Positions 9,676-49,287 of a DNA stretch of 56,431 bases are shown one piece after another. The stretch is from assembly GCA_964449385.1 (NCBI GenBank), contig CAYUYO010000004.1, positions 1 to 56,431 on the forward strand, written 5' to 3'. The position numbers were made by a program, and so were the translations under genes. The stretch comes from an uncultured Candidatus Saccharibacteria bacterium. Lineage in GTDB: Bacteria > Patescibacteriota > Minisyncoccia > Minisyncoccales > CAYUYO01. Every line of letters begins with the position of its first letter. The first letter of the stretch is position 1. The notes under the pieces are model-generated. The model ran no database searches. It had not been told where the DNA came from and worked only from the letters and a program-made list of their open reading frames with translations.

Positions 9676-9772
9676 GGTTTTTTTACAATAAGTCCTGATT
9701 TTTTATAAATTTCCGCTAAATGCTTTTGATAAAACTGAATTGAAAAGCTCTTTGAGTTTTGATTTTTTATTC

Positions 9773-11486: not shown

Positions 11487-12366
11487 AATTTTGTATTTCT
11501 GGTTTTCTTCTTCCTCCTTTACGTGCGGCGATTTTGGGAACTCCAGGACCGGGCATAATAATTGTTTTAATTTTCGTATTCTTCAGACTTCTCATTAGTT
11601 TTGCCATTGGAATTTTAGTCTCCCTACTTTTTTTCATTAATTCGGCTATTTCATCACCAGAAATAGTTTTACCTGGTATTGCCTCGACAAAAGTTTGAAT
11701 ATTCCATGTTGTCTCTGATTCCTCATTTGTATTAGTCATCGTATCTAAAAGAGTCTCTGGTGGCAATTCATCTATAACCCCTTGCATGCCCATTCCGTGC
11801 GTGTGTATATGTTTGAATTGATCAATTTCGCCCCGTTCAATTGCAAACACCCACATATCGTAATCTGTAAATGGAATATGAAAATCAGAATATTTAATGA
11901 ATGTATTTCCATCTATCCTCATTTGGAAATGATAGTGAGGTTTTCTCCCTCGAATCTTAAAAAAATGTCCAGTAAAATCTCCTTTAGAACATGAAAAAGA
12001 CCACTCAAGGTTTTTATACTTAATGGTTTGCTCAATAACTTTTGATGAGCGTTTTTCTTTAACAAGGTCATTTATATTTTTAAATGGTGCTTCACTATTT
12101 GCTAACCATCTAAAGTAGGGATTAATTCTCCAGTAATCAAATCTACTAAAAACCAAAGGAAAATGTTTTTTATTGAATCCGACAGGTCTTAGTAACCAGT
12201 GTATACAAGGACGATCAACGGAAAAATAATCAAATCTCTGATGACAAAGATAACATTCATCTCTCTTAAGAGCATCTTTAAACCCTTGAAATTCTTCTTC
12301 CGTTTCTTTAATAGTCCTTTCATTCATTTTCGTAATCTGCTGAGGTGTTAATTTGGGAAAATCCAT
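11479..12366 (-). CDS. hypothetical Cys/His-rich protein (first gene of the 4-gene operon)
   Basis: 295-aa ORF with CYLCHQRFDYFSVDRPCIHW, KPHYHFQM and HIHTHGMG. No family recognised. Confidence 0.5.
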   Translation of the reverse strand: MDFPKLTPQQITKMNERTIKETEEEFQGFKDALKRDECYLCHQRFDYFSVDRPCIHWLLRPVGFNKKHFPLVFSRFDYWRINPYFRWLANSEAPFKNINDLVKEKRSSKVIEQTIKYKNLEWSFSCSKGDFTGHFFKIRGRKPHYHFQMRIDGNTFIKYSDFHIPFTDYDMWVFAIERGEIDQFKHIHTHGMGMQGVIDELPPETLLDTMTNTNEESETTWNIQTFVEAIPGKTISGDEIAELMKKSRETKIPMAKLMRSLKNTKIKTIIMPGPGVPKIAARKGGRRKPEIQNFD

Positions 12367-12468
12367 AGTTTATCTTGAATTAACGCTTTTGATTACTTTT
12401 ATATCCTGTTTGATTAAGCCATAAAGTTTATAGCCCCCCTAAGTTATCCACAGTTGACTACTACTCTG

Positions 12469-12490
12469 CGTTCTAAAAACGTTCTATAAT
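12469..12490 (+). promoter_or_regulatory. candidate promoter/operator of the LexA-MTase gene
   Basis: Direct repeat CGTTCT (12469-12474) N5 CGTTCT (12480-12485) running into a perfect TATAAT (12485-12490), 37 nt upstream of the ATG. Confidence 0.4.
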
Positions 12491-12527
12491 AGAATTGTAG
12501 CATGTAAAGCTTACCAGTCAATAACTT

Positions 12528-14087: not shown

Positions 14088-14823
14088 CGTCTTGAGCTTC
14101 TTTTATAATCTTCCTGTGTTTTTTAATAATTCTCTTTGATCTATAAACAATAGTTTTTCTGAACAATTGCTCAAATTGTTCCAATGTTTTTATTGGCGGA
14201 TCAATATCAAAATCCTTAGGCCTGAGATTCCCATCTTTTTCTCGATACTTAAGCAGTTTAGCTTTGTTAAGTCCCAAAAAGTTATAAAAGGGGGCTACCT
14301 CTATATTCTGAACTTCTTTTGTTTTTTCATTAAAATTGTAAATAACAAAAATATAGTAAATATTTCTCCCGTCAAATTTTCTAATTCTGTTAGGCCACTC
14401 ATTAAGAGTTCCCATATCGTTCTCGCTATTTTTCACAGCCACCCATTTGCCTTGCCTATTCTGACTCCTATTACCAGATTTAAACTCAATAGCAATAGGT
14501 GGCGCTGTCTTTAATTCGAAATCGGGGAAGTAATTTTTATGCGGCGCAATAGCATAATCTCTGTCGTTTTTGATAAAATCAGTTTTCTTAAAAATATCAA
14601 CGATAATATCGGTCAGGTATTCCTCAATAGCTGTGCCAAAAGTACGGTAATTGAAATCACCGGCACCAACAACCCGCTTTAAATCATCTAAAATCTTCTT
14701 TCTTGAGGAAATCAAAACCTTAATTGCCGCAGTACCATTTTTATTTTTTGCTTGTTTTTGAGGCATGTTTATTAAAATCACAATTCGTACTTTTAGGATA
14801 GCACTTAGAATGGGAAATGACAA
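14068..14823 (-). CDS. putative type II restriction endonuclease (PD-(D/E)xK)
   Basis: YFPDFELKTAPPIAIEFKSG fits PD...ExK. The gene is convergent with the MTase gene and overlaps it by 20 nt. The start is uncertain (14823 or the internal ATG at 14766). Confidence 0.55.
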   Translation of the reverse strand: MSFPILSAILKVRIVILINMPQKQAKNKNGTAAIKVLISSRKKILDDLKRVVGAGDFNYRTFGTAIEEYLTDIIVDIFKKTDFIKNDRDYAIAPHKNYFPDFELKTAPPIAIEFKSGNRSQNRQGKWVAVKNSENDMGTLNEWPNRIRKFDGRNIYYIFVIYNFNEKTKEVQNIEVAPFYNFLGLNKAKLLKYREKDGNLRPKDFDIDPPIKTLEQFEQLFRKTIVYRSKRIIKKHRKIIKEAQDAKTEKG

Positions 14824-14871
14824 TTCTTTTAATGGCGAATTCTGGTAAAATCTGTCAAAATGGAAATATAA

Positions 14872-15549
14872 ATGAAAATTACAATGAGCCTACCAAAAAC
14901 AATTTTAGATATTGTTAAAGTCATCCACGACAAGTTAGAAATTGTTCCAGAAAAAGATAAGGTACTTACGATTTCTTTATGGGATTTCAAGGACGAAAAC
15001 GGAGATGCTATTCCTAAAATGAACTTGAAAAATGGGTTAAGGAAATTAGCGGAAGATAATAAACTTATCCAATTAAGAGATATTAAATGTCTTGATAGAT
15101 TAGGAAGATTTGCCGGTGAGAGAATAGAGCTTGAAATTAATCGGGAAGCATTTTCAAAAATAAGTAAGTTAACGGAGAAAAGCATTAAAAAGAAAATCAA
15201 ACACGTTGCCTTAGACCCAAAATCTTATTCTTTAATAATTAACCATCAAGATTATGTGCCGTTTAGGTCAAAAAGGCATAAACAGGATTTAGAAGCAGAA
15301 ACAAAACAATTCAAAATCCTATATCATCTCTGGGAATTTAGAAAAGAAATAAAAAACGGGAAAGTAAGCCAGAAAATAGATTCTGATTTTGCATCCCTTT
15401 CCAATATCGCAAGAGGAGCTGAATGCACCGAAGAGGCATCCAGGCAACATATAAAAAGGCTTAGACAAAGATTTAAGAAAGAAAAGCTACCCATAGACAT
15501 TGAGCCAAGCGGAACTGGACTATATCAGTTGGTGATTGAATTAGAATAA
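14872..15549 (+). CDS. DNA-binding protein with a C-terminal OmpR/PhoB-type winged helix
   Basis: The C-terminus (EEASRQHIKRLRQRFKKEKLPIDIEPSGTGLYQLV) matches the Trans_reg_C pattern. Confidence 0.5.
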   Translation: MKITMSLPKTILDIVKVIHDKLEIVPEKDKVLTISLWDFKDENGDAIPKMNLKNGLRKLAEDNKLIQLRDIKCLDRLGRFAGERIELEINREAFSKISKLTEKSIKKKIKHVALDPKSYSLIINHQDYVPFRSKRHKQDLEAETKQFKILYHLWEFRKEIKNGKVSQKIDSDFASLSNIARGAECTEEASRQHIKRLRQRFKKEKLPIDIEPSGTGLYQLVIELE

Positions 15550-15719
15550 TCTCAATAAGTCTATTTCTGGACTATTTCTTGGTCGCCTTATCATAAGGTG
15601 GCTTTTTTATTTACGCATATTTTCAAGTCCCAATTGGTCATATGCTCCAAAATGACCAAATTTAGCTAGTGATTCGGCTGTTAAAATTAAATAAAAAGTA
15701 AATAAAATCATCAATTATT

Positions 15720-15959
15720 ATGAACCAAAATGAATTTTCAAGTTTTGATCTGGGATTGGCGACGGTGCTGATAACGCTGGCTTACGAGCTGCTCGAACTA
15801 GACAGATCTATGCCCAAAAAGGTTAGGTTTGTTTTCAGACGGGAGAAAAACATTGAGGGAGTAATGGCTGATTACTTTAATGACAAAATAAAACTGCCGG
15901 CCCAAACCTTATTCAATAACCAGAAAAATCTTAAATCACGCCTTTATTGTGGTGCGTGA
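15720..15959 (+). CDS. DUF5659-like small protein
   Basis: FSSFDLGLATVLITLAYELLELDRSMPKKVRFVFRRE matches the family pattern as I recall it. Confidence 0.45.
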   Translation: MNQNEFSSFDLGLATVLITLAYELLELDRSMPKKVRFVFRREKNIEGVMADYFNDKIKLPAQTLFNNQKNLKSRLYCGA

Positions 15960-15969
15960 TTTTTATTTT

Positions 15970-16179
15970 ATGTTGCCAGAAGCCGCAATTATTCAATTCA
16001 AAAAAATCTGGAAAAAGCTTTATGGAATTGAACTTAGCGATAAAGAAGCCGTTTTTCGGGCAAATAATTTGGTTGCTTTATATCGTGCGGTTTACGGAAA
16101 TCGGCAAGATATTCAAAACAATAAACAAATAAATTCTAATCATGCTGGAGAAAATAACATTCAAACAGAAAATAAATAA
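15970..16179 (+). CDS. small hypothetical protein (LYRAVY family; paralog of 6407..6589)
   Basis: Internal ATG of ORF 15949..16179. FKKIWKKLYGIELSDKEAVFRANNLVALYRAVY aligns with the 6407..6589 product. Confidence 0.5.
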   Translation: MLPEAAIIQFKKIWKKLYGIELSDKEAVFRANNLVALYRAVYGNRQDIQNNKQINSNHAGENNIQTENK

Positions 16180-16804
16180 GGATTGTGAAGGAAGTTTTGA
16201 AATAAGAGATTTGAGAGAAAAAGACAGATTTGTCGTGGACGACAAATTCCTGAACGGCTATGCCAGATTTCTGGGAGTTTATGCTGTCGGCGTTTACAAC
16301 TCACTCTGCCGGCACGCAAATAAAGAGCAAAAATGCTGGCCGTCCATTAAAAAGATAGTGCAGGAACTATCAATCGGCAGAAACAAAGTATTCGACAGCA
16401 TCAAGTATCTTGAATTTTGGCAGATCATCAAAAAGGAAAGGTTGGGCAAAAAACTAACAAACAGATATTTATTGCTAAGTAAACGCTATTGGAAACCCAT
16501 AAGTGAAGGTTCTCTCAAGGACTTCAGTGAAGTTTACCACATAAACTTCAAGAGTTTGCTGGATAAACTTCACGAGTTTACCTCATCAACTTCCATAGTA
16601 AGGAAACAAAATAGTAATTTATTAAAAAAGAAAGGAGATCTTTCTTTTAAAGAATTAGCCGACGCTTACAAAAAAGGAGAAAGAAAATGTAAGCCCTTCT
16701 TTTGGGGAGACGAAATGAGATGGTCTCAAAACAAATGGTGGGTTATTAAAAACGGTGAATGGCTTAAATTTGACGGAAATGAATCGGAAATAGAGTGGAG
16801 ATGA
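16142..16804 (+). CDS. winged-helix DNA-binding protein, replication-initiator/DnaD-like
   Basis: CWPSIKKIVQELSIGRNKVFDSIKYLEFWQIIKKER is a typical wHTH of plasmid/phage Rep-like proteins. Iteron-like repeats follow the gene. Confidence 0.45.
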   Translation: MLEKITFKQKINKDCEGSFEIRDLREKDRFVVDDKFLNGYARFLGVYAVGVYNSLCRHANKEQKCWPSIKKIVQELSIGRNKVFDSIKYLEFWQIIKKERLGKKLTNRYLLLSKRYWKPISEGSLKDFSEVYHINFKSLLDKLHEFTSSTSIVRKQNSNLLKKKGDLSFKELADAYKKGERKCKPFFWGDEMRWSQNKWWVIKNGEWLKFDGNESEIEWR

Positions 16805-16823
16805 ACCTGCCTCTTAAAACGCC

Positions 16824-16851
16824 TTGTATGAGTTGTATGAGCCTGTATGAC
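16824..16851. repeat. iteron-like tandem repeats TTGTATGAG TTGTATGAG CCTGTATGAC
   Basis: Three tandem 9-10 bp units read directly, 20 nt after the rep-like gene stop. Confidence 0.6.
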
Positions 16852-16920
16852 GATTTTCAAGCAAAAGGTAGAGATTTATACCGCCTACAAACATCTAACA
16901 CTTCTAACAATATATAATAT

Positions 16921-17211
16921 ATGGCGCAAGGTAAAAAAGTAACAGAAAAACAATGGAACGAATTTCTAAAAGTCCTCGGGGAGACGCTCGGTTTAATCGG
17001 AGCTACTTGTAGAAAAGTAGGGATTAGCCGCTGGACTTATTATGACCACCGATCAAAAGATAAAGAATTTGCTAAAAAAGCAGATCTAACCATAATGCAA
17101 ACGGGCGTAGCTTTTGCTGCGGATAAATTGCTCGAAGCAGTATCTCAAGGTGAGGGCTGGGCAATAAAATTTTTTTTAATGTGTAAAAGTAAGGAATGGC
17201 GGCCATACTAA
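16921..17211 (+). CDS. small HTH protein (terminase-small-subunit/excisionase-like)
   Basis: CRKVGISRWTYYDHRSKDKEFAKK HTH, with position immediately upstream of the recombinase gene. Confidence 0.4.
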   Translation: MAQGKKVTEKQWNEFLKVLGETLGLIGATCRKVGISRWTYYDHRSKDKEFAKKADLTIMQTGVAFAADKLLEAVSQGEGWAIKFFLMCKSKEWRPY

Positions 17212-17318
17212 GTTGTCCACTTGACTTCTTTTCTGGGTAGCACATTGTTTGTATTGAGCTGACGCTCCAGCCCTAAAAATGGCTCAGGTGGAGCGTCACC
17301 CGAGCCATTTTCAATAAC

Positions 17319-18956
17319 ATGAGCATGAACCAACAAGAAAAAATTAAATACTTGGTCTACTGCCGAAAATCTTCGGAACAAGAAGATAGGCAGGTACTAT
17401 CTATTGAATCTCAAAGAAACGAACTGGAAAGAATCATTGAAAACGAAGGATTAAAAGTTGTTGAGACATTGGAAGAATCTCATTCGGCAAAAAAGCCAGG
17501 CCGCCCTATCTTTGATAATCTTCTTGAAAAAATTGAAAAAGGAATCGCTAACGGACTCTTAGTTTGGAACGCAAATAGAATATCAAGAAATCCAATAGAT
17601 ACTGGCAGGATTGTTTATTTAATGGATGAAGGAAAACTGCTGGAAGTGAAGACGCCGGGCCAAGCATTTCGTAATACGCCCAACGATAAATTCTTACTCA
17701 ATCTCTTTTGTAGCCAGGCAAAATTGGAAAACGATAATAAAGGCGAAGATGTAAAACGTGGGCTGAAAACAAAAGCGGAAAAAGGAATGTATCCGGCGCC
17801 AGCTCCAACAGGATATATAAACGAAAAATATGCAGACAGGGGCAGCAAAAGAATACTGCCCGATCCTGAAAGGTTTGATCTGGTCAGAAAAATGTTTGAT
17901 ATGATGCTTAAAGGAATTCACTCGCCACTTCAAATTCTCAGAGCGGCTAATGACGAATGGGGTTTAAAAATGCCCAATGGTAAGAAAATGGGCAGAAGCA
18001 CTATCTATAACCTTTTTACCAATCCCGTTTATTACGGGATGTTTGAATATCCAAAACATAGTGGACTCTGGTATAAAGGCACTCACAAGCCAATGATAAC
18101 AGCTGAAGAATACGACCGAATTCAGTTCTTGCTCGGTAGAAAAGGGCGCCAGCGTCCTAAAACGCACGTCTTCGCCTTTACAGGACTTATACGATGCGCT
18201 GAGTGTGGTTGCATGGTTACGGCTGAAGAAAAGATAAAGAAACAGAAAAACGGCAACGTTCACCGATATATCTATTACCATTGCACCAAAAGGAAAAACC
18301 CGAACTGCACTCAAAAATGCATAGAGCAAAATGAATTGGAAAAACAAATCAAAGCCGCAATTGAAACAATCAGCATTCCGCCAGTGCTTCACGACTTTGC
18401 TCTGGAGTGGCTCAAAAAAGAAAACCAAAAAGAGTCGCATACCACAAACGTCGTGCTTGATACACAAGAAAAGAAATATAAAGACTGCCTGAAGAAATTA
18501 GCAGGTTTGATTGATATGAGGGCAGCTGGCGAAATAGATGAGGAAGAATTCAAATCAAGAAAACTTCCGCTAACTGCCGAGAAAAAGCGCTGGGAGCAGG
18601 TATTTACCAAAACCAGCCAGAGAGTGGATCAATGGCTAGATAAAGCTGACGAGATATTAGATTTCGCCCGAGATGCCAAAATAAGCTTCGAAAATGGCGA
18701 ACCCGACAATAAAAAAGAGATACTCTCCCGTTTAGGTTCGAACCTCCTGTTAAAAGACAAAATAATCGTAATTAACACCCAAAACACGCTGATTCCCATT
18801 CAGGCGCTTTCAACCGAAGATAAGCGGTTAGAACCTCTCAAAATAGGCAAAAATACGAAGGAGATAATGGAACTTTACTCAAAAAGTCCACGAATGCTGC
18901 GGGGCAAGGATTCGAACCTCGATCGATTGGACCAAAACCAACTGTCCTACCATTAG
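17319..18956 (+). CDS. large serine recombinase
   Basis: Resolvase-type N-domain (YCRKSSEQEDRQVLSIESQ, WNANRISRN), a recombinase domain, a zinc ribbon (CAECGCMV...YYHCTKRKNPNC) and a coiled-coil tail. The last 19 codons plus the stop lie antisense inside tRNA-Gln. Confidence 0.85.
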   Translation: MSMNQQEKIKYLVYCRKSSEQEDRQVLSIESQRNELERIIENEGLKVVETLEESHSAKKPGRPIFDNLLEKIEKGIANGLLVWNANRISRNPIDTGRIVYLMDEGKLLEVKTPGQAFRNTPNDKFLLNLFCSQAKLENDNKGEDVKRGLKTKAEKGMYPAPAPTGYINEKYADRGSKRILPDPERFDLVRKMFDMMLKGIHSPLQILRAANDEWGLKMPNGKKMGRSTIYNLFTNPVYYGMFEYPKHSGLWYKGTHKPMITAEEYDRIQFLLGRKGRQRPKTHVFAFTGLIRCAECGCMVTAEEKIKKQKNGNVHRYIYYHCTKRKNPNCTQKCIEQNELEKQIKAAIETISIPPVLHDFALEWLKKENQKESHTTNVVLDTQEKKYKDCLKKLAGLIDMRAAGEIDEEEFKSRKLPLTAEKKRWEQVFTKTSQRVDQWLDKADEILDFARDAKISFENGEPDNKKEILSRLGSNLLLKDKIIVINTQNTLIPIQALSTEDKRLEPLKIGKNTKEIMELYSKSPRMLRGKDSNLDRLDQNQLSYH

Positions 18957-18967
18957 ACGACCCCGCA
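18897..18967 (-). tRNA. tRNA-Gln (anticodon UUG)
   Basis: Manual cloverleaf: acceptor TGCGGGG/CCCCGCA, D stem GTCT/GGAC, anticodon stem GTTGG/CCAAT with loop TTTTGGT, T arm CGAGG-TTCGAAT-CCTTG. No CCA is encoded. Confidence 0.9.
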
Positions 18968-18970
18968 ATA

Positions 18971-41430: not shown

Positions 41431-42273
41431 CTATTTTAATAGAATTTTTGCTTCTTTTATTAATAGATTGAAACGACTTGGAGATACTTTAACCTTTTTA
41501 GCAAGCTTTATAGGATTAATTTTTAAAATATCTTTAGCTAATATAATCTTTTCTGAAGTTAAGATATCAGCTAAATCTTTTTTTAATGAAGGAAGAATAG
41601 TAATTGGATATAAGTTTTGATTTTCAATAAAATACTCTAACCCTTTAGGTTTAGGATATCTCCATCCCAAAAGACAGGTATTTACGCATTTAGAATATCT
41701 AATAGCCGATGTAGTAAACTTGGTATTGGTAACTAAAATAGTTTTTAATTCAAAGTTTTTGAACGTTTTTTGCCTTAAAAAATATCCCTTTTTAAGATCT
41801 AAGAATCGAGCATAATTAGACAGAGCTATATCAGAATGAACCCTTCCTTCTGATAAGTTTCGATATTTACATTCTCCAATATAGAGTAAATTTCCTTTCT
41901 GGGCTAAGAAATCAATTTCATAACGTAAACAAAGACCCTGAATATGCTGATTTAATTTAACTTGAAAACCTTGCCGAGAAAAAATCTCTACGATATATTT
42001 CTCAAAAGGAAACCCGGTAGGTCCCAATTTTCTCATTGCTTCTTTGAGAGAAAATTTTATAGCCAAATTCGGCGCTTCCCAACGAAGTATTTGCTTTATT
42101 TTTTTAAATATTTCTAAGGTTTTAATACCCGGATAAATTTCTTTTTGAATAGTTTTAGCAATTTCTTCAGCCAAGCTTTTTGAGGCGCCAATTCTCTTTG
42201 CGCTTTGATATACTTTCCTCAAAGAAAAAAGCTCTTTCTCCCCTCTTGAATTAATTACATAAGAAGAATTCAT
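41431..42273 (-). CDS. ATP-cone domain fused to an Mrr-like PD-(D/E)xK restriction endonuclease domain
   Basis: The N-terminal 90 aa or so are ATP-cone-like (VINSRGEKELFSLRKVYQSAKRIGAS...). The rest is Mrr_cat-like (FEKYIVEIFSRQGF...YEIDFLAQKGNLLYIGECKY). Confidence 0.6.
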   Translation of the reverse strand: MNSSYVINSRGEKELFSLRKVYQSAKRIGASKSLAEEIAKTIQKEIYPGIKTLEIFKKIKQILRWEAPNLAIKFSLKEAMRKLGPTGFPFEKYIVEIFSRQGFQVKLNQHIQGLCLRYEIDFLAQKGNLLYIGECKYRNLSEGRVHSDIALSNYARFLDLKKGYFLRQKTFKNFELKTILVTNTKFTTSAIRYSKCVNTCLLGWRYPKPKGLEYFIENQNLYPITILPSLKKDLADILTSEKIILAKDILKINPIKLAKKVKVSPSRFNLLIKEAKILLK

Positions 42274-43121
42274 ATTCCTATTTCTATTTGAGAAACATCA
42301 TCTAATATAATTTCCGGCTTACCTTGATAATCTTTAATTTTTCCTTTTACTCTGACAGTTTTTCCCGAATAATAGTTTTGCGGATTTTCAACAAATTTAG
42401 ATTGGTTAGAACTAAAAATTACTGCCGTAAAACATTGATTGGGATAAGCTTCTTCAAAATTCAAAAAAGTAGTATCAGTTGCTGATTTATAAACATCAAT
42501 AACCTTTCCTTCAACAATCATTTCTTTACCAATATAATTCCCTGCATCACAAGCTAAAACTACTTCTAAACCGGTTTTTTCGGGAACAAGTTCTTTAAAA
42601 TTCTCTTCTTCTCCCCATTTACAGCCGATTTTGTTTTCAATGGCTTCTTTTTCAGCTTCATTTATAACTTCCTTATATTTTATATCCGGTTCATAAAATC
42701 GAGCGATAGCTAAACCTTCTTTTACTAATTGAAGATTGATATTTTTATTGTCAAAAAAAACATATCTCAGAGATCTGCCATATTGGTCAACATCTGTTTG
42801 ATCCTTTTCCAATTCAACTTTTTTATTTAAAACCAATTCTTCAAGGCGTAATTTAGCTGCTGTATAGCAAGGATAACCACTTTCATCCGTATCAATGCCT
42901 AAAAGCCTTAAATGATAGCCACCTTCAACTACTATTGTATCCCCATCAATAACTTTAGTCACTATTACTTCAGATGAAGCTAAATATTGGCCATTTGTAA
43001 TTTCTGCTTCTCCTTTTTCTGAAATTTGTTTTTTAGACGAAACATAAATAGCAGCTCCAATAATTAAAGCTCCAATAATAATCGCCAGGAATATTTTATT
43101 TTTCTCTAAAAACTGTTTCAT
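42270..43121 (-). CDS. membrane-anchored thermonuclease (SNase-like) with a C-terminal OB-like domain
   Basis: TM anchor IFLAIIIGALIIGAAIYV plus SNase motifs VIDGDTIVV, LRLLGIDTDE and GRSLRYVF. The start is moved to ATG 43121 because the longer ORF reads through tRNA-Val. Confidence 0.7.
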   Translation of the reverse strand: MKQFLEKNKIFLAIIIGALIIGAAIYVSSKKQISEKGEAEITNGQYLASSEVIVTKVIDGDTIVVEGGYHLRLLGIDTDESGYPCYTAAKLRLEELVLNKKVELEKDQTDVDQYGRSLRYVFFDNKNINLQLVKEGLAIARFYEPDIKYKEVINEAEKEAIENKIGCKWGEEENFKELVPEKTGLEVVLACDAGNYIGKEMIVEGKVIDVYKSATDTTFLNFEEAYPNQCFTAVIFSSNQSKFVENPQNYYSGKTVRVKGKIKDYQGKPEIILDDVSQIEIGI

Positions 43122-43123
43122 AG

Positions 43124-43196
43124 TGGGCACTATAGGATTCGAACCTATGACCTCTTCGATGTGAACGAAGCACGCTAACCCCTGCGCCAAGTGCCC
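43124..43196 (-). tRNA. tRNA-Val (anticodon CAC)
   Basis: Manual cloverleaf: acceptor GGGCACT/AGTGCCC, D stem GCGC/GCGT, anticodon stem CTTCG/CGAAG with loop TTCACAT, T arm ATAGG-TTCGAAT-CCTAT. Confidence 0.9.
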
Positions 43197-43232
43197 TGTT
43201 ATTATTATTTTGACATTTTCTATACCTTTTAT

Positions 43233-43274
43233 CAAAAAAAAGAGCGGCTAAGAGCGTTCAAAACACTCTTAGCC
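43233..43274 (-). terminator. intrinsic terminator of the two-gene small-ORF operon
   Basis: On the minus strand, GGCTAAGAG pairs with CTCTTAGCC (9 bp) and a U-run follows. Confidence 0.65.
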
Positions 43275-43697: not shown

Positions 43698-43818
43698 GTA
43701 CTGAGCCTCCATAGAGGCGAGGTGGAAGATGAGATTTACCTCATCGCCTGTTGAAAATTAAAAAAGGAAACTTCTTTAATATTTGTTATTTTTTTATAAA
43801 TTTTCTACAATATACTTG

Positions 43819-45627
43819 ATGCAGGTTTTTGAATTTCATTTTAATCCAAAAAGAAAAGAAGATTTGGTTTTCGATAGTTTTTGTTATGAACCGGAAAATA
43901 TCTATGAAAGGAGAGTAGGAAGTTTATACATGGTAGGAAATCTAAAAAATGTTCTACCTAAAAACAACCGCTTTCTTGATAATTTATCCAGTGTTATTAA
44001 AGAAAAATATTACAGTCCAAAACTTCATTTACCAGAAAATTCACTTAAAGAAAGCTTAAGAACGGCTAATGATCACTTAGAAAGAATTGCTAAAAGTAGT
44101 GATGTAAGCTGGCTTGGAAATTTAAGTTTTGCCGTACTTTCTTTGAGAAACTTTGAACTTAATTTTACTAAGGTTGGAGATTTAAAGATACTCTTATTAA
44201 GAGGAAGAGGAATTATCGATATTGACGAGAAATTAAAATTAGAAGAAATTGACCCTTATCCTTTAAAGATATTTGGCAATATTGCTTTTGGGAAATTGGC
44301 TGAAAATGATTTGATTTTAGTTTTGACAAAGGAAGTTTTTGATTATTGCCAAAGTAAGAACCTTTTAGACAAAATCGCTGAAATAGTTCCCTTTGACGGA
44401 GAAAAATTAAGGGGAATCTTTAATCACGGTAAAGAAGATCTTTTAAATATTTCAGGAGTTTGTTTAGTTATAGCTTTAACCAAAGAAACTTTAATCAAGA
44501 AGCGAGAATCTATTTTACCACAACAAAAAAGATTTTCTCTGAAAGAAGCTTTTACTCCGATTATTAATTATATTAAGAAATTAATTAAAAAACCTAAATT
44601 AAGACTACCTCATCCATCTATTCCTAAATTAACTATTCATAAGCCAGCTATTCCTAAAATTATTATCCCTAAATTAAATATCAAGATTCCATTTATGAAA
44701 GAGAAGATGGAAAAAAGGATAAAGACTTCTTCTTTTAAAAATATAATTATAATTTTAGTTTTAATATTTCTATTAGTTTTAGGGTCTTTTGTTTTTCAAA
44801 AGGAAAAAGAGCAGCAATTAAAAGAATATCAAACCACCTTAAGTCAAATTCAAGAAAAAGTTAGCCAAGCAGAAAACCTTTTACTTTTAAAAGAATTAAG
44901 ACCAGAAGCTCAAAAACAAGCAAACTTACTATTGAAAGAAAGCTGGGATGAAATTTTACCTTTAACTAAAATTCAAAATTTACCATTGAAAGAACAAGCT
45001 CTCGCTATCCAAGAAACAATGAAAGGATATTTAGAATCTCTTAACAGGATGAAAATAATCGAAGAACCTTTATTGTCTCCTGATTTTGATGAAAACGAAT
45101 TTATTTCTAAAAAAATGTCTGTTTTAAGAGAAACTGCTCCGGAAAATTTTACGTCTGATATCTTTTGTGATTATAAATCAAACCTTTATTCTTTAGACAA
45201 TATATCCGGAGAAATAATTAAATATATTTCAACAGGAGATCTTAAATGGGCCGAACCAAAGGTTTGGATAAAATCTGATTCATTAATTGAAGCAAAATCA
45301 ATAATAATAGACGGAGGCATTTGGATTCTGAACAAAGATAATTCAATCAGTAGATATTATGCCGGTAATCTTCAAAAAACCTTAGAATTAAATATTTTCC
45401 CGGAACCAAAAAACTTTTCCAGGATTTTTACTTCCGAAACACTTCCCTATCTTTATATTTTAGAACCAAATAAAAACCGGCTTATTATTATTAATAAAGC
45501 CGGCGAAACTATTAAGCAGTATCAAAGCGAAAAGTTTGACAATCTTTCAGATTTTGCCGTATCTCTTAACGGCAAAACTATTCATTTATTCAATGGCTTG
45601 AAGATTTATCAAATTGATATTCCCTGA
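43819..45627 (+). CDS. large single-pass membrane hypothetical protein
   Basis: The start is set at ATG 43819 (TTGTTA-17-TACAAT-7nt-ATG). It has a Pro/Lys-rich IPK repeat linker (HPSIPKLTIHKPAIPKIIIPKL), a TM helix (IIIILVLIFLLVLGSFVF) and a C-terminal extracytoplasmic domain of about 270 aa. Confidence 0.65.
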   Translation: MQVFEFHFNPKRKEDLVFDSFCYEPENIYERRVGSLYMVGNLKNVLPKNNRFLDNLSSVIKEKYYSPKLHLPENSLKESLRTANDHLERIAKSSDVSWLGNLSFAVLSLRNFELNFTKVGDLKILLLRGRGIIDIDEKLKLEEIDPYPLKIFGNIAFGKLAENDLILVLTKEVFDYCQSKNLLDKIAEIVPFDGEKLRGIFNHGKEDLLNISGVCLVIALTKETLIKKRESILPQQKRFSLKEAFTPIINYIKKLIKKPKLRLPHPSIPKLTIHKPAIPKIIIPKLNIKIPFMKEKMEKRIKTSSFKNIIIILVLIFLLVLGSFVFQKEKEQQLKEYQTTLSQIQEKVSQAENLLLLKELRPEAQKQANLLLKESWDEILPLTKIQNLPLKEQALAIQETMKGYLESLNRMKIIEEPLLSPDFDENEFISKKMSVLRETAPENFTSDIFCDYKSNLYSLDNISGEIIKYISTGDLKWAEPKVWIKSDSLIEAKSIIIDGGIWILNKDNSISRYYAGNLQKTLELNIFPEPKNFSRIFTSETLPYLYILEPNKNRLIIINKAGETIKQYQSEKFDNLSDFAVSLNGKTIHLFNGLKIYQIDIP

Positions 45628-45740
45628 AAAGAAAAATAATTAACATAATTATCGGAATTATTAAAGGCAAGCATTTCATCAATATAGCTAAGATAATTAA
45701 GATGATTATATTAAAGATTGAAAGCCAAAAATGTTTCTTT

Positions 45741-45923
45741 TTATCTTCTGCTTTCTTTTTTTTCTTTCGAGATAAGAGAAGCAAGGCAGCTAATATAGCC
45801 ATAATAAGAGCTAGAATCCAGCAATAATTGTCTAAGCCAAGACCCACCAGGCGATTCAGCCAAAGCCGTGGCCGGAAGTAGAACCAGTGTCAGTGCCAGT
45901 ATCAGAATTATTACCTTTTTCAC
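45741..45923 (-). CDS. small secreted/anchored peptide, GTG start with SD; possibly frameshifted into ORF 45590..45847
   Basis: AAGGAG lies 5 nt upstream of the GTG. The signal peptide is MKKVIILILALTLVLLPATALA. A TM segment plus poly-Lys tail appears only in the overlapping frame. Confidence 0.4.
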   Translation of the reverse strand: MKKVIILILALTLVLLPATALAESPGGSWLRQLLLDSSSYYGYISCLASLISKEKKESRR

Positions 45924-46235
45924 TTCTTCTCCTTTTCTCTTTAGTTTTGATTTACTGCTTTGTCAGCAGTAGCCAAAGAAAAAATTTCCAGTCTTTCCTG
46001 AATGTCATTCAGTCTTTCCCGAATGTCAATTTTTCTATAAGCATCACCTCCCTTTATTTCCAATCTCAGCTTATGTCAATTATCAGTATTCTTCTCTCAA
46101 AGAGCCAAAGAACTATTATATAAAAAGGCCCTCCTTGACCTTTCATAATTGTTTGTTTTAACACAAATAAAAAACTTGTCAATAGTTTTGATGTCCTATC
46201 TATGTCCTACCTTAATTATATTTTTTAACATTTAT

Positions 46236-46260
46236 AAAAAACCAAGTCCTTGCGGACTTG
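46236..46260 (-). terminator. displaced copy of the rplL terminator
   Basis: CAAGTCC pairs with GGACTTG (7 bp, loop 4) followed by a U-run on the minus strand. Near-identical to 48251..48277. Confidence 0.6.
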
Positions 46261-46286
46261 ATTTTTAAAATTTCGGAATACTTGTC

Positions 46287-46319
46287 CTATTTTAATTCTA
46301 CTTTGGCGCCGGCTACTTC
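46287..46319 (-). pseudogene. rplL 3'-end fragment, part A (last 10 codons plus stop)
   Basis: The minus strand encodes ..VAGAKVELK*. The wider repeat (46236-46319) aligns with 48253-48336 with 4 mismatches. Confidence 0.75.
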
Positions 46320-46321
46320 TA

Positions 46322-46549
46322 TTATAAAAGTTTTAGAAATTCATCTTTTGAAATTTCAGCTTGTTTTAAAATATGTAAAAGTGTCAATTGGGGAATATCT
46401 TTTGAATGAACTGGAACAGTAATTTTTAAATAAGATTTTGTCCGATGGAATAACCGAGCATGACTTCCAATCTGGTGATGAATATAAAAACCGGCTCGCT
46501 GAAGAGCTCGGATTACTTCTTTTGGTTTCAGTATTGGCAAGGTGGTCAT
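46322..46549 (-). CDS. hicA: HicA-family mRNA interferase toxin
   Basis: LKPKEVIRALQRAGFYIHHQIGSHARLFH. Confidence 0.8.
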   Translation of the reverse strand: MTTLPILKPKEVIRALQRAGFYIHHQIGSHARLFHRTKSYLKITVPVHSKDIPQLTLLHILKQAEISKDEFLKLL

Positions 46550-46819
46550 TTATTTTAGAGAAAAAGAAACTGCTACTTTTTCTCTTATTGGCTTTTTAAA
46601 AGATTGAGGTCTTTCGGAAATTATTTCTCTACTCTTGAAAGCGCTTTCTAAATAACAACGTAAAGCATCTTTAGCCATCTCTTTGGATTCCTTCAAGTTT
46701 CGGCCAAAGGTACAAATTTCTGGGATAGCTGGGAAAACAACATTAAAACCACCGTCTTTTAAGGGTTCATAAATTACTGTATAAGAATATTCTTTTGAAT
46801 GAATAAATTTTTTAGTCAT
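46550..46819 (-). CDS. hicB: HicB-family antitoxin (UPF0150-like)
   Basis: YTVIYEPLKDGGFNVVFPAIPEICTFGRNLKESKEMAKDAL, abutting hicA. An extended -10 (TGaTATAAT) lies upstream. Confidence 0.75.
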   Translation of the reverse strand: MTKKFIHSKEYSYTVIYEPLKDGGFNVVFPAIPEICTFGRNLKESKEMAKDALRCYLESAFKSREIISERPQSFKKPIREKVAVSFSLK

Positions 46820-46900
46820 ATTTTATTAATTTTTCCATATTTATAGACTAATTGTTAGTTTTAACCTTATATCCAGTTTAAATTATATCAAAGATACTGT

Positions 46901-46933
46901 CTTTTTCTTCATCTCCTCAGCTTCTTCTTTCTT
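46901..46933 (-). pseudogene. rplL 3'-end fragment, part B
   Basis: 33 nt matching 48340-48372 with 1 mismatch. Parts A and B are contiguous (3 nt apart) in the intact gene. Confidence 0.7.
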
Positions 46934-47295
46934 TAAGTTAAAGCTTTTTTTAATAAAGAATTTATATTAATTTTTTCCAGATTAAACTTTGGTTTTTGCG
47001 ATTTGGGAACAGCTCTATTTGCGGCTACAGCACGTAACATCTCTGCTACATTTTTATTGGTATTAATAAAAAGTATAGATTTTTTAGCTCGTAGATTTTC
47101 CTTCATCAATAATAAGGCATGGGTAGCAGAACGTGAAATAAATATTACATTGATGAAATCCAAATCGACCAATCGGGTATTGGTTTTTTTAATAAATTTC
47201 TCCAATATACTAACTATATCACGAGAGCTTATAATCGGTGCTAATAAATTGGCGACGTCTATTGAAGTTTTCTTTTCTTTTTTAATATTTTTCAT
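46933..47295 (-). CDS. STAS-like (DUF4325-like) small protein
   Basis: RLVDLDFINVIFISRSATHALLL resembles the D-x-S/F-x-V-x-F-I-(D/S)-S block of anti-sigma antagonists and DUF4325. It sits directly downstream of the GHKL kinase-like gene. Confidence 0.5.
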   Translation of the reverse strand: MKNIKKEKKTSIDVANLLAPIISSRDIVSILEKFIKKTNTRLVDLDFINVIFISRSATHALLLMKENLRAKKSILFINTNKNVAEMLRAVAANRAVPKSQKPKFNLEKININSLLKKALT

Positions 47296-47344
47296 ATTTT
47301 TAATTGTCGTATAAATATTATTTAATTATAACATAAATTAAATA

Positions 47345-48199
47345 TTATTCTAAAAAATAAGAGATATCAAGAGGTCCTGTCGGTTTTGGTATTCTATAAG
47401 CAATAATTACTCCTTGCCAATAAAAATTAGGAAAAAATACCAATCTTTCTTTTTTGTTTTCGGAAACTAAACCAGCAGCACCCGATATCATAATAAACCC
47501 TCCATTTAAAACGTCGCATATAATCTTTTTAGATGTCCAAACACCATAACCTCTTTCTCTGTCAGATTTTACCGAATTACCCTTCATTACTTCAGTAATG
47601 GCATCGATATCTGATAATTTTAGATTTTTTTCTTCTTTATACGCACCGGCAAATCCCCTACCGCAATCAACAATGCAAATATCTAAATAATTTTTGTTAG
47701 GATAAAATTGGCCGAAGATAAATCCGGTATCTTTCTTACTATGCTCAAATATATTAGTCACCAACTCTGCAATAGGATAACAAACAGCGTTTTGCGCTCC
47801 TGGAATATTACCAAGTGTCTCGTAAATTTTTTCCGAAAATAATGCTTCTAACCTCTCTCTTTTAGTTCCCTCTTTTTTTCTTAATATACTTATTGGAATA
47901 TAACTTTTGTATTTCTGAGTTTTTCGTTGAAATGAAGAAATAGAATCTATACCCTTTGGAAAGTTTACTGTTTCTAGGTATGTTTTAATTTTGGACAATT
48001 GATTTATTCTATACTCACTATGAGTATTATTTATATAGGCACTTATAGGCAACACTAATAAAGGACAAACCCAATCAAGCAAAGATAAATCAAATTCTAA
48101 ATCTTCTTTATTTTTAGTATTTATAAAAGTTCTATACAATGATCCTAATTGAGCTACAAGAGAATCATTTTTGGGCAACGGAACAATGACATTTTTCAT
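47345..48199 (-). CDS. SpoIIAB/RsbW-like GHKL ATPase/Ser kinase with an unknown N-terminal domain
   Basis: N box IAELVTNIFEHS, G1 box IVDCGRGF, G2-like ERGYGVW. The N-terminal 130 aa or so are unassigned. Confidence 0.6.
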   Translation of the reverse strand: MKNVIVPLPKNDSLVAQLGSLYRTFINTKNKEDLEFDLSLLDWVCPLLVLPISAYINNTHSEYRINQLSKIKTYLETVNFPKGIDSISSFQRKTQKYKSYIPISILRKKEGTKRERLEALFSEKIYETLGNIPGAQNAVCYPIAELVTNIFEHSKKDTGFIFGQFYPNKNYLDICIVDCGRGFAGAYKEEKNLKLSDIDAITEVMKGNSVKSDRERGYGVWTSKKIICDVLNGGFIMISGAAGLVSENKKERLVFFPNFYWQGVIIAYRIPKPTGPLDISYFLE

Positions 48200-48250
48200 A
48201 TCAACCTTATTCTACCAAAAAATCATTCTTTAGGCGATGTCAATAACTGT

Positions 48251-48277
48251 AAAAAAAACCAAGCCCTGGCGGACTTG
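48251..48277 (-). terminator. rplL intrinsic terminator
   Basis: On the minus-strand RNA, CAAGUCC pairs with GGGCUUG (one G-U pair), followed by U8. Confidence 0.65.
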
Positions 48278-48303
48278 ATTTTTAAAATTTCGGAATATTT
48301 GTC

Positions 48304-48744
48304 CTATTTTAATTCTACTTTGGCGCCGGCTGCTTCAAACTTTTTCTTCATCTCCTCGGCTTCTTCTTTCTTAACGTTTTCTTTAACCATCTGAGGAGCA
48401 GTAGCAGCAGCGTCAACTAAATCTTTGGCTTCTTTCAATCCTTTCTCGGTTATATCCCTTACTGTCTTAATCACTTCAATCTTTTTGTCGCCAACAGTTG
48501 TAAGCTCAATGTTGAAAATACTTTTTTCTTCGACAGAATCTGCAGCAGGACCAGAAGCAGCAGCAGGAGCAACTGCTATTGGAGCCTGAGCTGAAACTCC
48601 GAATTTTTCTTCTAAAACCTTAACCAATTCGGATAAATCTAAAACTGACAATTCTTCTATTTTCTTAACAATGTCTTCAAATTTCTTTGGAACCTTAGCT
48701 TCTTTTTTTTCTTCCTTTTTTTCTTCTTTTTTTTCTTCAGTCAT
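48304..48744 (-). CDS. rplL: 50S ribosomal protein L7/L12 with a Lys/Glu-rich N-terminal extension
   Basis: [41 protein letters not shown] and a GAKVELK end. Confidence 0.9.
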
Positions 48745-48774: not shown

Positions 48775-49287
48775 TTACGTTTTGACCTTAGCCAAAACAC
48801 AGATTAGACCTTTAATATTTCCCTGTAAAACATTGACAAATTGAGACATGGGAGCAGAAATAGTTGCAACTAATTCAGATAAAAGCTCATTTCTAGTTGG
48901 AAGTTTAGCCAAAATAATTGTTTCTTCCGCATTCTGGAATTTATTTCCAAAGAAACTGCCTAAGATTTTTAAATTTGGATTTCCTTGGCTAAATTGATAA
49001 ATTATTTTAGCAGGAGACAGTTCATCCTTAAACCCAAAAATCACGGCAATCTCTCCTTTTAATTTTTCATTTTCTATCTCAATCTTTTTTTCTTTTAAAG
49101 CTAATCCCAATAAAGTTTTTTTAACTACTTTCAATTCATTTTCAGATGCCCTCAATTCTTTTCTCAAATTAGACAAGTCTTTTACTTTCAAACCTGTAAA
49201 ATCAGCAAAAACCATTGCTTTTTGTTTGGAAGCTTTTTCTTTTAAATCTTCGATGATCTTCTGTTTTTGAATTTTTGTTAATGCCAT
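48775..49287 (-). CDS. rplJ: 50S ribosomal protein L10
   Basis: Position upstream of rplL, plus the MVFADFTGLKVKDLSNLRKELR motif. Confidence 0.9.
   Translation of the reverse strand: MALTKIQKQKIIEDLKEKASKQKAMVFADFTGLKVKDLSNLRKELRASENELKVVKKTLLGLALKEKKIEIENEKLKGEIAVIFGFKDELSPAKIIYQFSQGNPNLKILGSFFGNKFQNAEETIILAKLPTRNELLSELVATISAPMSQFVNVLQGNIKGLICVLAKVKT

Follow-up and report, generated by a model that had tools for sequence, protein, structure and literature searches.

Small cassettes without recombinases between duplicated rplL 3' ends in Patescibacteria

Small units of site-bounded cargo that lack a recombinase of their own are familiar as CIMEs and as Xer-dependent modules (IMEX, pdif); they stack in tandem and often carry toxin-antitoxin genes. 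The 3' end of rplL, the gene for ribosomal protein L7/L12, is a documented attachment site of tyrosine-integrase ICEs in Streptococcus (PMC4701971). These elements (ICESa2603 and the Tn5252 family) are tens of kb long, with a tyrosine integrase beside the att site, conjugation genes and direct repeats of 12-54 bp. For T6SS and Rhs loci, displacement mediated by an anchor and leaving orphan 3' regions has been proposed (PMC5361080). There, as in CDI loci, it is the variable toxin domain at the 3' end that is replaced, and the immunity gene for it forms the cargo.

The locus described here lies in a stretch of 56,431 nucleotides (the window) from an uncultured Patescibacteria genome (contig CAYUYO010000004.1). 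It resembles the ICESa2603/Tn5252-family elements in the gene and gene end used, in direct repeats made of the rplL 3' end, in the intact gene and in the cargo downstream (PMC4701971). In contrast to them, the cassettes are only 0.6-1.3 kb, are without recombinase or transfer genes, occur in a different phylum, and have repeats of up to ~130 nt that include the terminator. With the Rhs/CDI/T6SS orphan arrays it shares a conserved upstream anchor, an incoming 3' end with cargo, old 3' pieces arrayed downstream, and no involvement of a dedicated recombinase (PMC5361080). Here, however, what is replaced is the unvarying tail of a ribosomal protein gene or the end of a tRNA, and the cargo has no relation to the anchor gene. 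The units are also like CIMEs and Xer-dependent modules in being small, recombinase-less, able to stack and provided with toxin-antitoxin cargo, but their bounding repeats differ from locus to locus. No cognate integrase, ICE or dif-like 11-6-11 site was identified here, and a literature search found nothing on a GHKL-STAS cassette or on rplL islands in Patescibacteria. The parts of the locus are as follows.

48775-49287: rplJ, upstream of rplL
48304-48744, minus strand: intact rplL (L7/L12, 146 aa), a listed ORF (Pfam Ribosomal_L12 E=1.3e-25, Ribosomal_L12_N E=2.8e-17)
48340-48378, minus strand: X1, part of intact rplL with a second copy at 46901-46939 (repeat search and pattern search)
48250-48336, minus strand: Z1+T1, upstream copy of the 87-nt repeat, with the final 10 rplL codons, stop, spacer ATTCCGAAATTTTAAAAATC and terminator hairpin (48254-48283) with T-run
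48200-48249, minus strand: non-coding region 5' of GHKL-STAS, with an extended -10-like TGGTAGAAT (about 48209-48217) 9 nt before the ATG
47345-48199, minus strand: GHKL (Bergerat-fold) ATPase/kinase-like protein, 284 aa (Pfam HATPase_c_2 E=8e-4, below cut-off)
46933-47295, minus strand: STAS-domain protein, anti-anti-sigma-like, 120 aa (Pfam STAS PF01740 matches of its homologues)
46901-46939, minus strand: X2, displaced rplL fragment copying X1, starting inside the STAS stop codon
46320-46900, minus strand: hicBA cassette, with promoter-like TGATATAAT, hicB and hicA (profile matches, junctions read)
46550-46819, minus strand: hicB (HicB_lk_antitox E=5e-5, 23.8 bits, just under the cut-off of 27)
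46322-46549, minus strand: hicA (HicA_toxin E=4.3e-16, 59 bits against a cut-off of 27)
46233-46319, minus strand: Z2+T2, displaced final 10 codons (with an Ala to Val change), stop, spacer and second terminator (hairpin 46237-46266)
45628-46232, minus strand: native DNA downstream of rplL (alignment with the relative L180)
45741-45923: small signal-peptide ORF in this native DNA
43783-45627, plus strand: convergent gene for a 614-aa protein, after the native DNA

The last ~75 nt of rplL and the terminator are present again downstream as two pieces, 46901-46939 and 46233-46319. The larger matches 48250-48336 over 87 nt at 94% in the repeat search, with 5 mismatches (4 in the 84 nt compared in an earlier note on this DNA); the smaller matches 48340-48378 over 39 nt at 92%, with 1 mismatch in 33 nt. 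All repeat coordinates of the earlier note hold. Each pattern has exactly 2 copies in the window versus 0 expected from 100 shuffles, and a pattern search of the whole window revealed no further copies of either. The pieces lie 3 nt apart in intact rplL (48337-48339) versus 581 nt apart in the displaced copy. The terminator stem is 13 bp, and T1 and T2 fold at -16.9 and -17.5 kcal/mol, with z values of -3.4 and -4.5. From the intact gene the order is rplL, terminator T1, GHKL, STAS, fragment X2, hicB, hicA, fragment Z2 and terminator T2, and a microhomology, AAC(G)TTAA, is found at the joint of the STAS stop and X2. The note had described one inserted two-gene cassette. The GHKL-STAS pair is present, but a second cassette, hicBA (46322-46819), had been overlooked, and it is this one that splits the displaced fragment. 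The absence of an integrase between the repeats, also claimed there, is borne out: the only genes found are those for GHKL, STAS, HicB and HicA.

As in islands and ICEs, the 3' end of the target gene forms direct repeats while rplL itself is intact. The window duplications, 39-87 nt and variable in length, are unlike the short fixed target duplication of an IS or transposon. The repeat search of the window showed no terminal inverted repeats around either cassette, a feature of those elements. Integron attC-type palindromes (RYYYAAC/GTTRRRY cores) are absent from the cassette ends in the window, and no IntI-type integrase occurs among the called genes fetched across it. Base composition shows no GC deviation of the insert from its flanks.

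An empty site is found in L180, the closest relative with a long contig (L12 91% identical, upstream synteny kept). In L180 rplL and its terminator are followed by the DNA that follows T2 in the window, and Z2+T2 is colinear with this site through T2 and for >170 nt past it. This colinearity identifies ~2 kb in the window as an insertion and places the downstream copy in its native context. Many species-representative genomes also have rplJ, rplL and then the convergent 614-aa homologue directly abutting rplL. Thus the rplL 3' end has received ~2.0 kb of accessory DNA (roughly 46320-48336) in the form of two small cassettes, and rplL stays functional because a full 3' end and terminator lie upstream of the cargo. 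The repeats and L180 agree with the earlier proposal of an insertion at the rplL 3' end that leaves the gene an intact 3' end and terminator and a displaced 3' fragment downstream. A comparison with related genomes, for an empty site versus other cargo, had been suggested; L180 is empty, and other hosts have other cargo at rplL. The spacer motif was found in 27/190 loci, which belong to the window's own population, to the close relatives L180 and L181, and to the cassette-bearing L026/L099.

The data are short-read metagenome assemblies, and the repeats (39-87 nt) are below or near the k-mer sizes used, so that a collapsed or chimeric repeat has to be considered. The same gene order, however, occurs on >20 independent metagenome contigs across samples, assemblers and archives. 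The exact L12 and GHKL proteins were read on 23 and 22 contigs, respectively (ENA, JGI and Logan assemblies), with the window order in every displayed contig of sufficient length, and each junction is spanned by short contigs (L189, L190, L016, L017). Mis-assembly is ruled out as far as short-read data allow, and the chance of such an artefact is negligible. All contigs of the window's population represent the filled site, and they gave no sign of a recombination intermediate, a circle or a mixed population.

The 5 substitutions between the copies had been taken as a sign that the incoming copy came from a diverged lineage, a view that the relatives contradict. Both window copies share states that differ from L180 and L181 (GAATTAAAATAGGAC, TTCC, a 2-nt deletion and CTTGG), and such lineage-specific states mean that the substitutions are no sign of a diverged donor. 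Three differences are unique to the displaced copy, as expected for drift of a dead copy. A sharp recombination boundary within rplL was also sought by comparing hosts; the sequences are alignable throughout, with no clear step. The common lineage of the two copies would suit purely local slippage, in which the rplL tail and terminator were duplicated in tandem and unrelated genes later came to lie between the copies by chance. So would L057, where a 28-nt rplL-tail repeat has only the terminator between its copies. This explanation is improbable: bracketed cargo is found at rplL in at least five host lineages, the same cassette is bracketed at other targets far above the control rate, and distant hosts have received the terminator and spacer together with the cassette.

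In Patescibacteria the 3' end of rplL is a hotspot for insertions with varied cargo, and orphan rplL tails are left each time. The cargo includes GHKL-STAS, HicBA, Fic/DOC and a block of about 6-7 kb. Orphan tails after STAS have been detected in L111 (47 nt, 100%), L102/L103, L026 and L098. One series is on a contig common to L182 and L098: after intact rplL come ~6 kb of genes, the decayed remnant of an rplL tail, a HicB-like block and then further units, namely a Z fragment with T1, GHKL-STAS and another tail. This series indicates accretion on one contig. In L045 a Fic/DOC gene has a direct repeat of ~75 nt, the downstream copy of which starts, like Z2 in the window, at the GAAG codon. A conserved upstream anchor gene with serial displaced 3' fragments downstream is seen in the window, the L098/L182 array, L045 and L057.

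The left ends of the orphan copies vary, from ~28 to 75 nt before the stop. In several independent cases, breakpoints are clustered. The hicBA cassette is inserted exactly at TTT of the intact gene, at the Lys-Lys-Lys/Phe-Glu junction, and the window hicBA, the L045 Fic gene, an insert in L026/L102/L103 and the truncated copy of L098 all break 0-3 nt from Lys/Phe-Glu. Clustering of this kind looks more site-specific than generic illegitimate joining. The insert shared by L026/L102/L103 near this junction is structured and 46-50 nt long; a search of the window and all loci found it in these three only, and Rfam gave no match above threshold.

GHKL and STAS form a two-gene module that has moved recurrently and is found across the phylum. 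Between hosts the GHKL protein is 74-84% and the STAS protein 65-83% identical, in hosts where L10 is 42-66% identical, and cargo so much more conserved than L10 indicates that the pair moved horizontally. The earlier reading of the cargo as foreign is thus upheld, since conservation between hosts is much higher for GHKL-STAS than for the ribosomal genes beside it. In these hosts the terminator, spacer and 5' region upstream of GHKL are conserved too. A flanking direct repeat is present at 20/43 distinct cassette loci, as opposed to 1/113 random mock cassettes and 2/37 mock gene pairs (p=3e-5 for the latter). Tight brackets, 2-131 nt from the gene ends, occur at 13/43 loci versus 0/37 mock gene pairs. 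The bracketing direct duplications are 23-156 nt long and are copied from whatever precedes GHKL-STAS: rplL, tRNA 3' ends, the end of another gene, or terminator-promoter units. For example, L174 has four copies of a 41-nt tRNA 3' end, and in L118 the repeat starts at the T-loop.

Duplication of a tRNA 3' end from the T-loop onward is the classic signature of a tyrosine integrase. A T-loop-like motif, GTTCKAA, is also enriched after the STAS gene. An attC-like reading of the GTTCTAAC/GTTAGAAC motifs found after STAS in some loci was considered and dropped; remnants of tRNA T-loops fit better, and the window lacks these motifs. A tyrosine or Xer-type recombinase, acting in trans or since lost, could account for these features if each cassette carries an attP that includes the rplL or tRNA 3' end, as in a CIME or an Xer-dependent module, so that integrase-less cassettes flanked by att stack at the same site. 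The tandem arrays would follow the same logic, as would the breaks of independent cassettes and hosts within 0-3 nt of one junction and the repeats at tRNA 3' ends in L174 and L118. rplL 3' ends are moreover proven att sites of tyrosine-integrase ICEs, with direct repeats of 12-54 bp (PMC4701971). An integrase acting in trans could lie elsewhere, as only 56 kb of this genome was seen. The account is nonetheless unlikely, if far from idle. The Pfam annotations of the called genes that were fetched from across the window (56 kb) include no integrase, resolvase or transposase. None appears among the 25 commonest families of 150 ORFs neighbouring ~60 cassette loci, and no helper gene was found there. 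One cassette family has many unrelated targets, and for each of them an integrase and attP to match would be required. The repeats, which reach 156 nt, are long and of varying extent, with rplL-side boundaries from about -28 to -75, and in the window both copies belong to one lineage. The likeness to tRNA-targeting islands drawn in the earlier note therefore stands in that the 3' end of the target is duplicated and the gene left intact; it is weakened by the many unrelated bracketed targets without a nearby recombinase.

The pair might also be a new mobile element, one of whose own proteins (e.g., through the N-terminal domain of GHKL) inserts it with long, variable target-site duplications. 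Nothing between the repeats is constant except GHKL and STAS, no known structure matches the N-terminal domain in the searches made, and the proteins, although patchy in their genomic positions, show very strong conservation (57 invariant columns in 26 sequences). Against this, the proteins yielded no fold or motif of a nuclease, recombinase or transposase, and their domains fit a kinase and STAS partner-switching pair. About half of the loci have no repeat, and the hicBA and Fic cassettes bear the same rplL-tail signature without GHKL-STAS. Self-insertion is accordingly very improbable.

The preferred reading, to which a probability of about 0.5 is given, is that the rplL 3' end is a hotspot where recombinase-less cassettes stack after being moved in trans, most likely by host recombination anchored on conserved sequence. 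The lack of a recombinase in the cassettes and the occurrence of one family at many unrelated targets make such movement the most likely. DNA from relatives would be taken up and then acted on by host recombination; natural competence of the organism is assumed from general knowledge of the phylum. A conserved stretch on the incoming DNA, such as an rplL or tRNA 3' end, would serve as the homologous anchor, and the second end would be joined at a short microhomology, i.e., by homology-facilitated illegitimate recombination. Campbell-type reintegration of a looped-out circle of repeat and cassette would be an equivalent route. By either route the incoming 3' end would complete the gene and the resident one would be moved downstream as a direct repeat, and later events would place cassettes beside or within the orphan tail.

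Very little is known of the ways in which the tiny, host-dependent Patescibacteria (CPR) gain and rearrange accessory genes, and this locus provides a concrete case that can be tested. Here an essential ribosomal gene collects at its end, without a recombinase, small cassettes of toxin-antitoxin and of regulatory or defence-like genes; each insertion rebuilds rplL and leaves a fossil tail. These tails give a readable order of events and a simple key for finding such islands in metagenomes. If host recombination uses the anchor, conserved gene ends act as portable homology with which cargo crosses large phylogenetic distances; if an integrase acts in trans, the sites indicate its specificity. 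For annotation, a second rplL end plus terminator is an orphan fragment and not a gene. A wider and doubtful generalization is that Patescibacteria harbour minimal recombinase-less cassettes, GHKL-STAS, HicBA and Fic among them, that spread between distant hosts by means of carried, conserved housekeeping-gene or tRNA 3' ends which rebuild the target, so that the rplL tail would be an integrase-free, integron-style collection point. In its boldest version GHKL-STAS itself would drive insertion with long target duplications.

hicB and hicA abut with no gap, and their adjacent HicA toxin and HicB antitoxin domains fit a HicAB type II toxin-antitoxin pair. All contigs encoding the exact HicB protein are of the window type. 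A different left flank of hicBA is known from L181 alone, a contig of 1140 bp that ends 20 nt on; there the left end of the cassette, GACAGTATCTTT, comes after the rplL terminator. The window order is not derivable in one simple step from an L181-like state (rplL, terminator, hicBA); it needs a deletion of ~100 nt or an independent insertion of hicBA.

The other cassette probably encodes, judging from its domains, a partner-switching type kinase/STAS regulatory or defence-like module, which here lies beside a type II toxin-antitoxin pair. Its 5' region is kept in other hosts (alignment of the upstream regions of the window, L026, L098, L101 and L102) and is promoter-like, with a putative promoter of its own. 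As in RsbW/RsbV and SpoIIAB/SpoIIAA, a GHKL Ser-kinase-like protein is encoded beside a STAS protein with a serine position, here within an FISRS motif. In contrast to those systems, the gene order is reversed, the kinase-like protein is extended by an N-terminal domain of ~130 aa, there is no linked sigma factor gene, and the window's proteins score below the family cut-offs of Pfam and NCBIfam. The STAS gene is directly downstream of GHKL in nearly every locus long enough to show it. PF01740 is matched by 25/27 homologues, the window's own STAS protein being below threshold. The FISRS motif is invariant (S54, R55 and S56) and sits where anti-anti-sigma factors carry the phosphorylated serine. 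The neighbouring genes include no constant third gene that might be a linked target, and sigma-70 domains occur in just 2/150 neighbouring ORFs.

For the GHKL protein 277 homologues were found. Searches of PADLOC and NCBIfam for an identity of the cargo gave a weak match to the DrmA N-terminal region (PADLOC, E=1.4e-7), a sub-threshold RsbW match and nothing else. The AlphaFold model (pLDDT 90.6) predicts a GHKL ATPase fold, with Foldseek matches to the GHKL domains of GyrB, Hsp90, histidine-kinase and phage proteins, and a PDB fold search of the model gave weak GHKL matches alone. The N-terminal domain is alpha/beta and has no structural match in Foldseek or PDB searches. A viral structure library returned phage GHKL proteins, together with one unnamed protein of 233 aa (E=9e-8).

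The tail of rplL, the gene for ribosomal protein L12, occurs twice in the window, and the copies enclose inserted genes. Either repeat pattern is found exactly two times (none expected by chance), and a repeat search and alignment gave the same coordinates and mismatch counts as the earlier note. Following transcription, the elements of the region are:

48775-49287, rplJ, upstream of rplL
48304-48744, minus strand, intact rplL
48340-48378, X1, part of the intact rplL tail
48337-48339, Y, the TTT of the intact tail
48250-48336, Z1 (final 10 codons and stop), then spacer and terminator T1
between T1 and the GHKL gene, a leader of 50 nt
47345-48199, GHKL-type protein, 284 aa
46933-47295, STAS protein, 120 aa
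46901-46939, X2, a displaced tail piece whose start falls inside the STAS stop codon
46550-46819, hicB
46322-46549, hicA
46233-46319, Z2 and T2, the displaced copies of Z1 and T1
beyond T2, some 600 nt that include a small signal-peptide ORF
43783-45627, convergent gene for a 614-aa protein

On folding, T1 and T2 both form a 13-bp stem followed by a U-run. A single two-gene cassette had been described here, but there are two, since hicB/hicA occupies the 581-nt gap between the displaced tail pieces.

The duplicated arrangement is not a mis-assembly. For the exact L12, GHKL and HicB proteins, 22-23 contigs per protein were examined in ENA, JGI and Logan assemblies; the gene order is identical in every sufficiently long contig shown, and each junction is spanned by short contigs with 100% identity to the window. 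Samples containing this population include ERZ27248885 and JGI 3300028167 and 3300028193. Comparison with related genomes, as suggested in the earlier note, turned up an empty site in L180, the closest relative with a long contig (L12 91% identical; loci on other Patescibacteria contigs carry L numbers). Upstream synteny is the same as in the window (RND, ABC, FtsX, def, PCMT, yceG, rplJ). In L180, rplL and the same type of spacer and terminator are followed by more than 170 nt colinear with window sequence beyond T2, whereas the window past T1 departs from L180 and enters the cassette leader. About 2.0 kb is thus inserted relative to the empty site, and X2, Z2 and T2 stand in the ancestral context, the downstream copy being native. 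In many species-representative genomes rplL directly adjoins a homologue of the convergent 614-aa gene. The core of the earlier reading, an island in the rplL tail that supplied a replacement 3' end, therefore holds, with rplL reconstituted and the resident tail displaced.

The proposal that the incoming copy came from a diverged lineage does not stand. Measured against L180 and L181, two close relatives, the copies in the window both have GAATTAAAATAGGAC (vs GAGTTAAAGTAGGAT), TTCC (vs TTCT) and CTTGG (vs CTTGA), and a 2-nt deletion before the hairpin is common to both. Five differences separate the copies, and three of them (GCA to GTA, AAATAT to AAGTAT, and GGGC to GGAC) are unique to the displaced one. 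The pattern fits drift in a dead copy, or else homogenisation of the two.

The GHKL-STAS cassette is a tightly conserved two-gene module across Patescibacteria, with 277 homologues. The 120 best GHKL homologues of these are at least 55% identical, and the STAS gene comes after the GHKL gene in nearly all loci long enough to show it. The cassette has spread horizontally, terminator included. Cassettes of the clade closest to the window occupy the position behind rplL in another four host lineages (L026 = L099, L100 = L101, L102/L103, and L111). Between these hosts the GHKL protein is 74-84% identical, as against 42-66% for L10, the rplJ product, and 29-55% for the 614-aa protein. Upstream of GHKL, those hosts also keep the terminator, the spacer ATTCYGAAATTTTAAAAA and the leader TTGAYATCGCC...TTTTTTGGTAGAAT. 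A search for the spacer motif in 190 loci found it only in the window's population, in L180/L181, and beside the cassette in L026/L099, which argues that the terminator moves along with the cassette.

Orphan rplL tails after the STAS stop codon have been detected in L111 (47 nt, 100% identical), in L098, and in L102/L103 and L026. In the last three the tail is split by a structured insert of 46-50 nt at the same Lys | Phe junction. L102 (7016-7030) and L103 are otherwise the same strain, identical over about 3 kb save for the hairpin in this insert, where CCCCGC..GCGGGG is replaced by CTTTTG..CAAAAG with compensatory C:G to T:A changes; L026 has a third version. The flanks GAAGAAAC-TAAG-GTTTCTTC and CCACC..GGTG are conserved and fold (z to -3.9), and no Rfam match was found for the insert of L102/L103/L026.

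The rplL tail is a hotspot at which cassettes stack, with rplL reconstituted and old tails displaced. Matches to the tail lie downstream of rplL in 10 of 86 rplL loci; about 8 are convincing orphan tails, those in L069 and L079 being short and doubtful. L098 and L182 come from a single 115-kb contig. There, about 6 kb of small genes (DUF5678, MazG, DUF5674, UPRTase and others) separate intact rplL from a decayed X-Y-Z fragment, after which come a HicB-like block, a Z fragment from exactly TTTGAG with T1, GHKL-STAS, and another X'YZ' tail. Two loci without GHKL-STAS show the same site in use. L045 has a Fic/DOC gene between two copies (about 75 nt) of Z, stop and terminator, the downstream copy beginning at the same GAAG codon as window Z2, after a similar TTATARTA. 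In L057 (6365-6515) the last 28 nt of rplL are duplicated with no cargo, only a terminator lying between the copies; this may be what a lost cassette left behind, or else a replacement 3' end in minimal form. The left end of hicBA (GACAGTATCTTT) is found directly after the rplL terminator in L181, whose L12 (P0173) shares 94% identity with that of the window, so that the position of hicBA differs in the sister lineage. For the window there are two alternative orders of insertion: an L181-like start, which needs a deletion of about 100 nt, or later entry of hicBA into the dead tail.

Some details of L045 (6360-7890) can be added. The Fic/DOC gene is on the opposite strand, and the loop of the terminator reads TTAT in one copy and its reverse complement ATAA in the other, with the stem unaltered. 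Just downstream are ORFs that, from their translations only, are nucleotidyltransferase-like and HEPN-like.

Most GHKL-STAS loci are located away from rplL; the bracket belongs to the cassette family and is not peculiar to rplL. When the 600 nt before each cassette were compared with the 2 kb after it, a direct repeat was shared between the two in 20 of 43 distinct cassettes. The controls gave 1 of 113 for random mock cassettes and 2 of 37 for mock gene pairs, the latter with Fisher p=3e-5. Tight brackets, at most 150 nt from both ends, surround 13 of the 43 cassettes and none of the 37 mock pairs (p=1e-4). Repeat lengths span 23-156 nt, with identities of 89-100%. Examples are:

L125, 156 nt, the upstream gene's 3' end with terminator and promoter
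L174, a 41-nt tRNA 3' end, in four copies
L118, tRNA-His from the T-loop onward
L104, L112, L122 and L140, terminator-promoter units
L109, 148 nt and 99% identical, other local sequence

In L174 (5415-7292) the four tRNA ends surround a single intact tRNA (5514-5586). A 99-aa ORF at 5611-5910, GIY-YIG nuclease-like by its motif as judged by eye, lies between two copies, and GHKL-STAS between the next two, so that tiny cassettes form an array at a tRNA gene. Just downstream of the cassette the T-loop-like heptamer GTTC(T/G)AA is enriched: about 19 of 73 loci have it, where roughly 2 would be expected (5-180 nt past the STAS stop in L104, L106, L116, L118, L131, L144, L155, L156, L165, L173 and others). 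This excess suggests that many cassettes may carry or adjoin tRNA 3' remnants. In L134 (7254-7380), short tandem repeats GCCTGCCTGCC / GGTAGGCAGG directly after the STAS gene form a long imperfect palindrome.

No recombinase is encoded in cis. The precomputed Pfam lists of called genes fetched across the window contain no integrase, resolvase or transposase; at the cassette ends in the window a repeat search gave no terminal inverted repeats, and no attC-like palindromes occur there. About 60 distinct cassettes gave 150 flanking ORFs, in which Fic (6), HD (4) and NYN (3) lead the family counts; no recombinase family is among the 25 commonest. The suggested analogy with tRNA-targeting islands is weakened, and this island is probably not integrase-borne, since one cassette family without a recombinase in cis is found at many unrelated targets.

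Host recombination is favoured over a dedicated integrase, because one family is bracketed at many unrelated targets and because the repeats are long, variable and match the host's own sequence. A conserved stretch on the incoming DNA (the rplL or a tRNA end) would anchor homologous pairing, the far end would join at a microhomology (AAC(G)TTAA at the joint of STAS stop and X2), and the resident rplL tail would be pushed downstream. Looping-out and re-integration through the repeats could then spread the unit. Anchoring and displacement of this kind have been put forward to explain the orphan 3' arrays of T6SS and Rhs loci (PMC5361080). The main rival, insertion by a site-specific recombinase acting in trans, draws on the clustering of breakpoints from several independent events to within 3 nt of a single junction, on the tRNA T-loop signatures at cassettes, and on rplL tails being proven att sites in Streptococcus (PMC4701971). 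The locus is a variant, in Patescibacteria, of themes already on record: elements that integrate at the 3' ends of genes, and arrays of orphan 3' pieces. The mobile DNA of these organisms is poorly known, and the family-wide bracket around a two-gene cassette lacking a recombinase is most worth following.

Functions of the cargo are predicted from domains. The C-terminal half of the GHKL protein is a Bergerat-fold ATPase (weak Pfam matches; AlphaFold model pLDDT 90.6) whose model matches the folds of GyrB, Hsp90, histidine kinases and phage GHKL proteins; fold searches gave no match for the N-terminal alpha/beta domain (about 130 aa). In the viral library the model of the GHKL protein matches an unnamed 233-aa viral protein best (J7KH07, E=9e-8 over 242 aligned columns), which suggests that the whole two-domain protein, as modelled, may have phage relatives. 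In PADLOC, residues 96-242 align to the N-terminal region of the DrmA (DISARM) model. PF01740 is matched by 25 of 27 STAS homologues, and their FISRS motif is invariant. The pair resembles an anti-sigma kinase and its anti-anti-sigma factor in domains, but the order is reversed and no sigma factor is linked. HicA/HicB is, by domain profiles, a standard type II toxin-antitoxin pair. The neighbours of such cassettes (Fic, HEPN/nucleotidyltransferase and HicAB genes) suggest a selfish or defence-type role.

Elsewhere in the window, a tRNA-Val (43123-43196, minus strand) lies within the 5' part of a mechanical ORF (42270-43235) for an SNase-domain protein, so that gene must really begin downstream of the tRNA. 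In L099, this tRNA-Val is found after the 614-aa gene. A phage- or mobile-looking block at 9700-18970 (HTH_36, DUF5659, muramidase and many ORFs without family) has no called integrase and includes a 519-aa LexA/S24 peptidase fused to an N6_N4 DNA methyltransferase (12528-14087). It terminates at tRNA-Gln (18896-18967) and may be a prophage remnant or an island at a tRNA.
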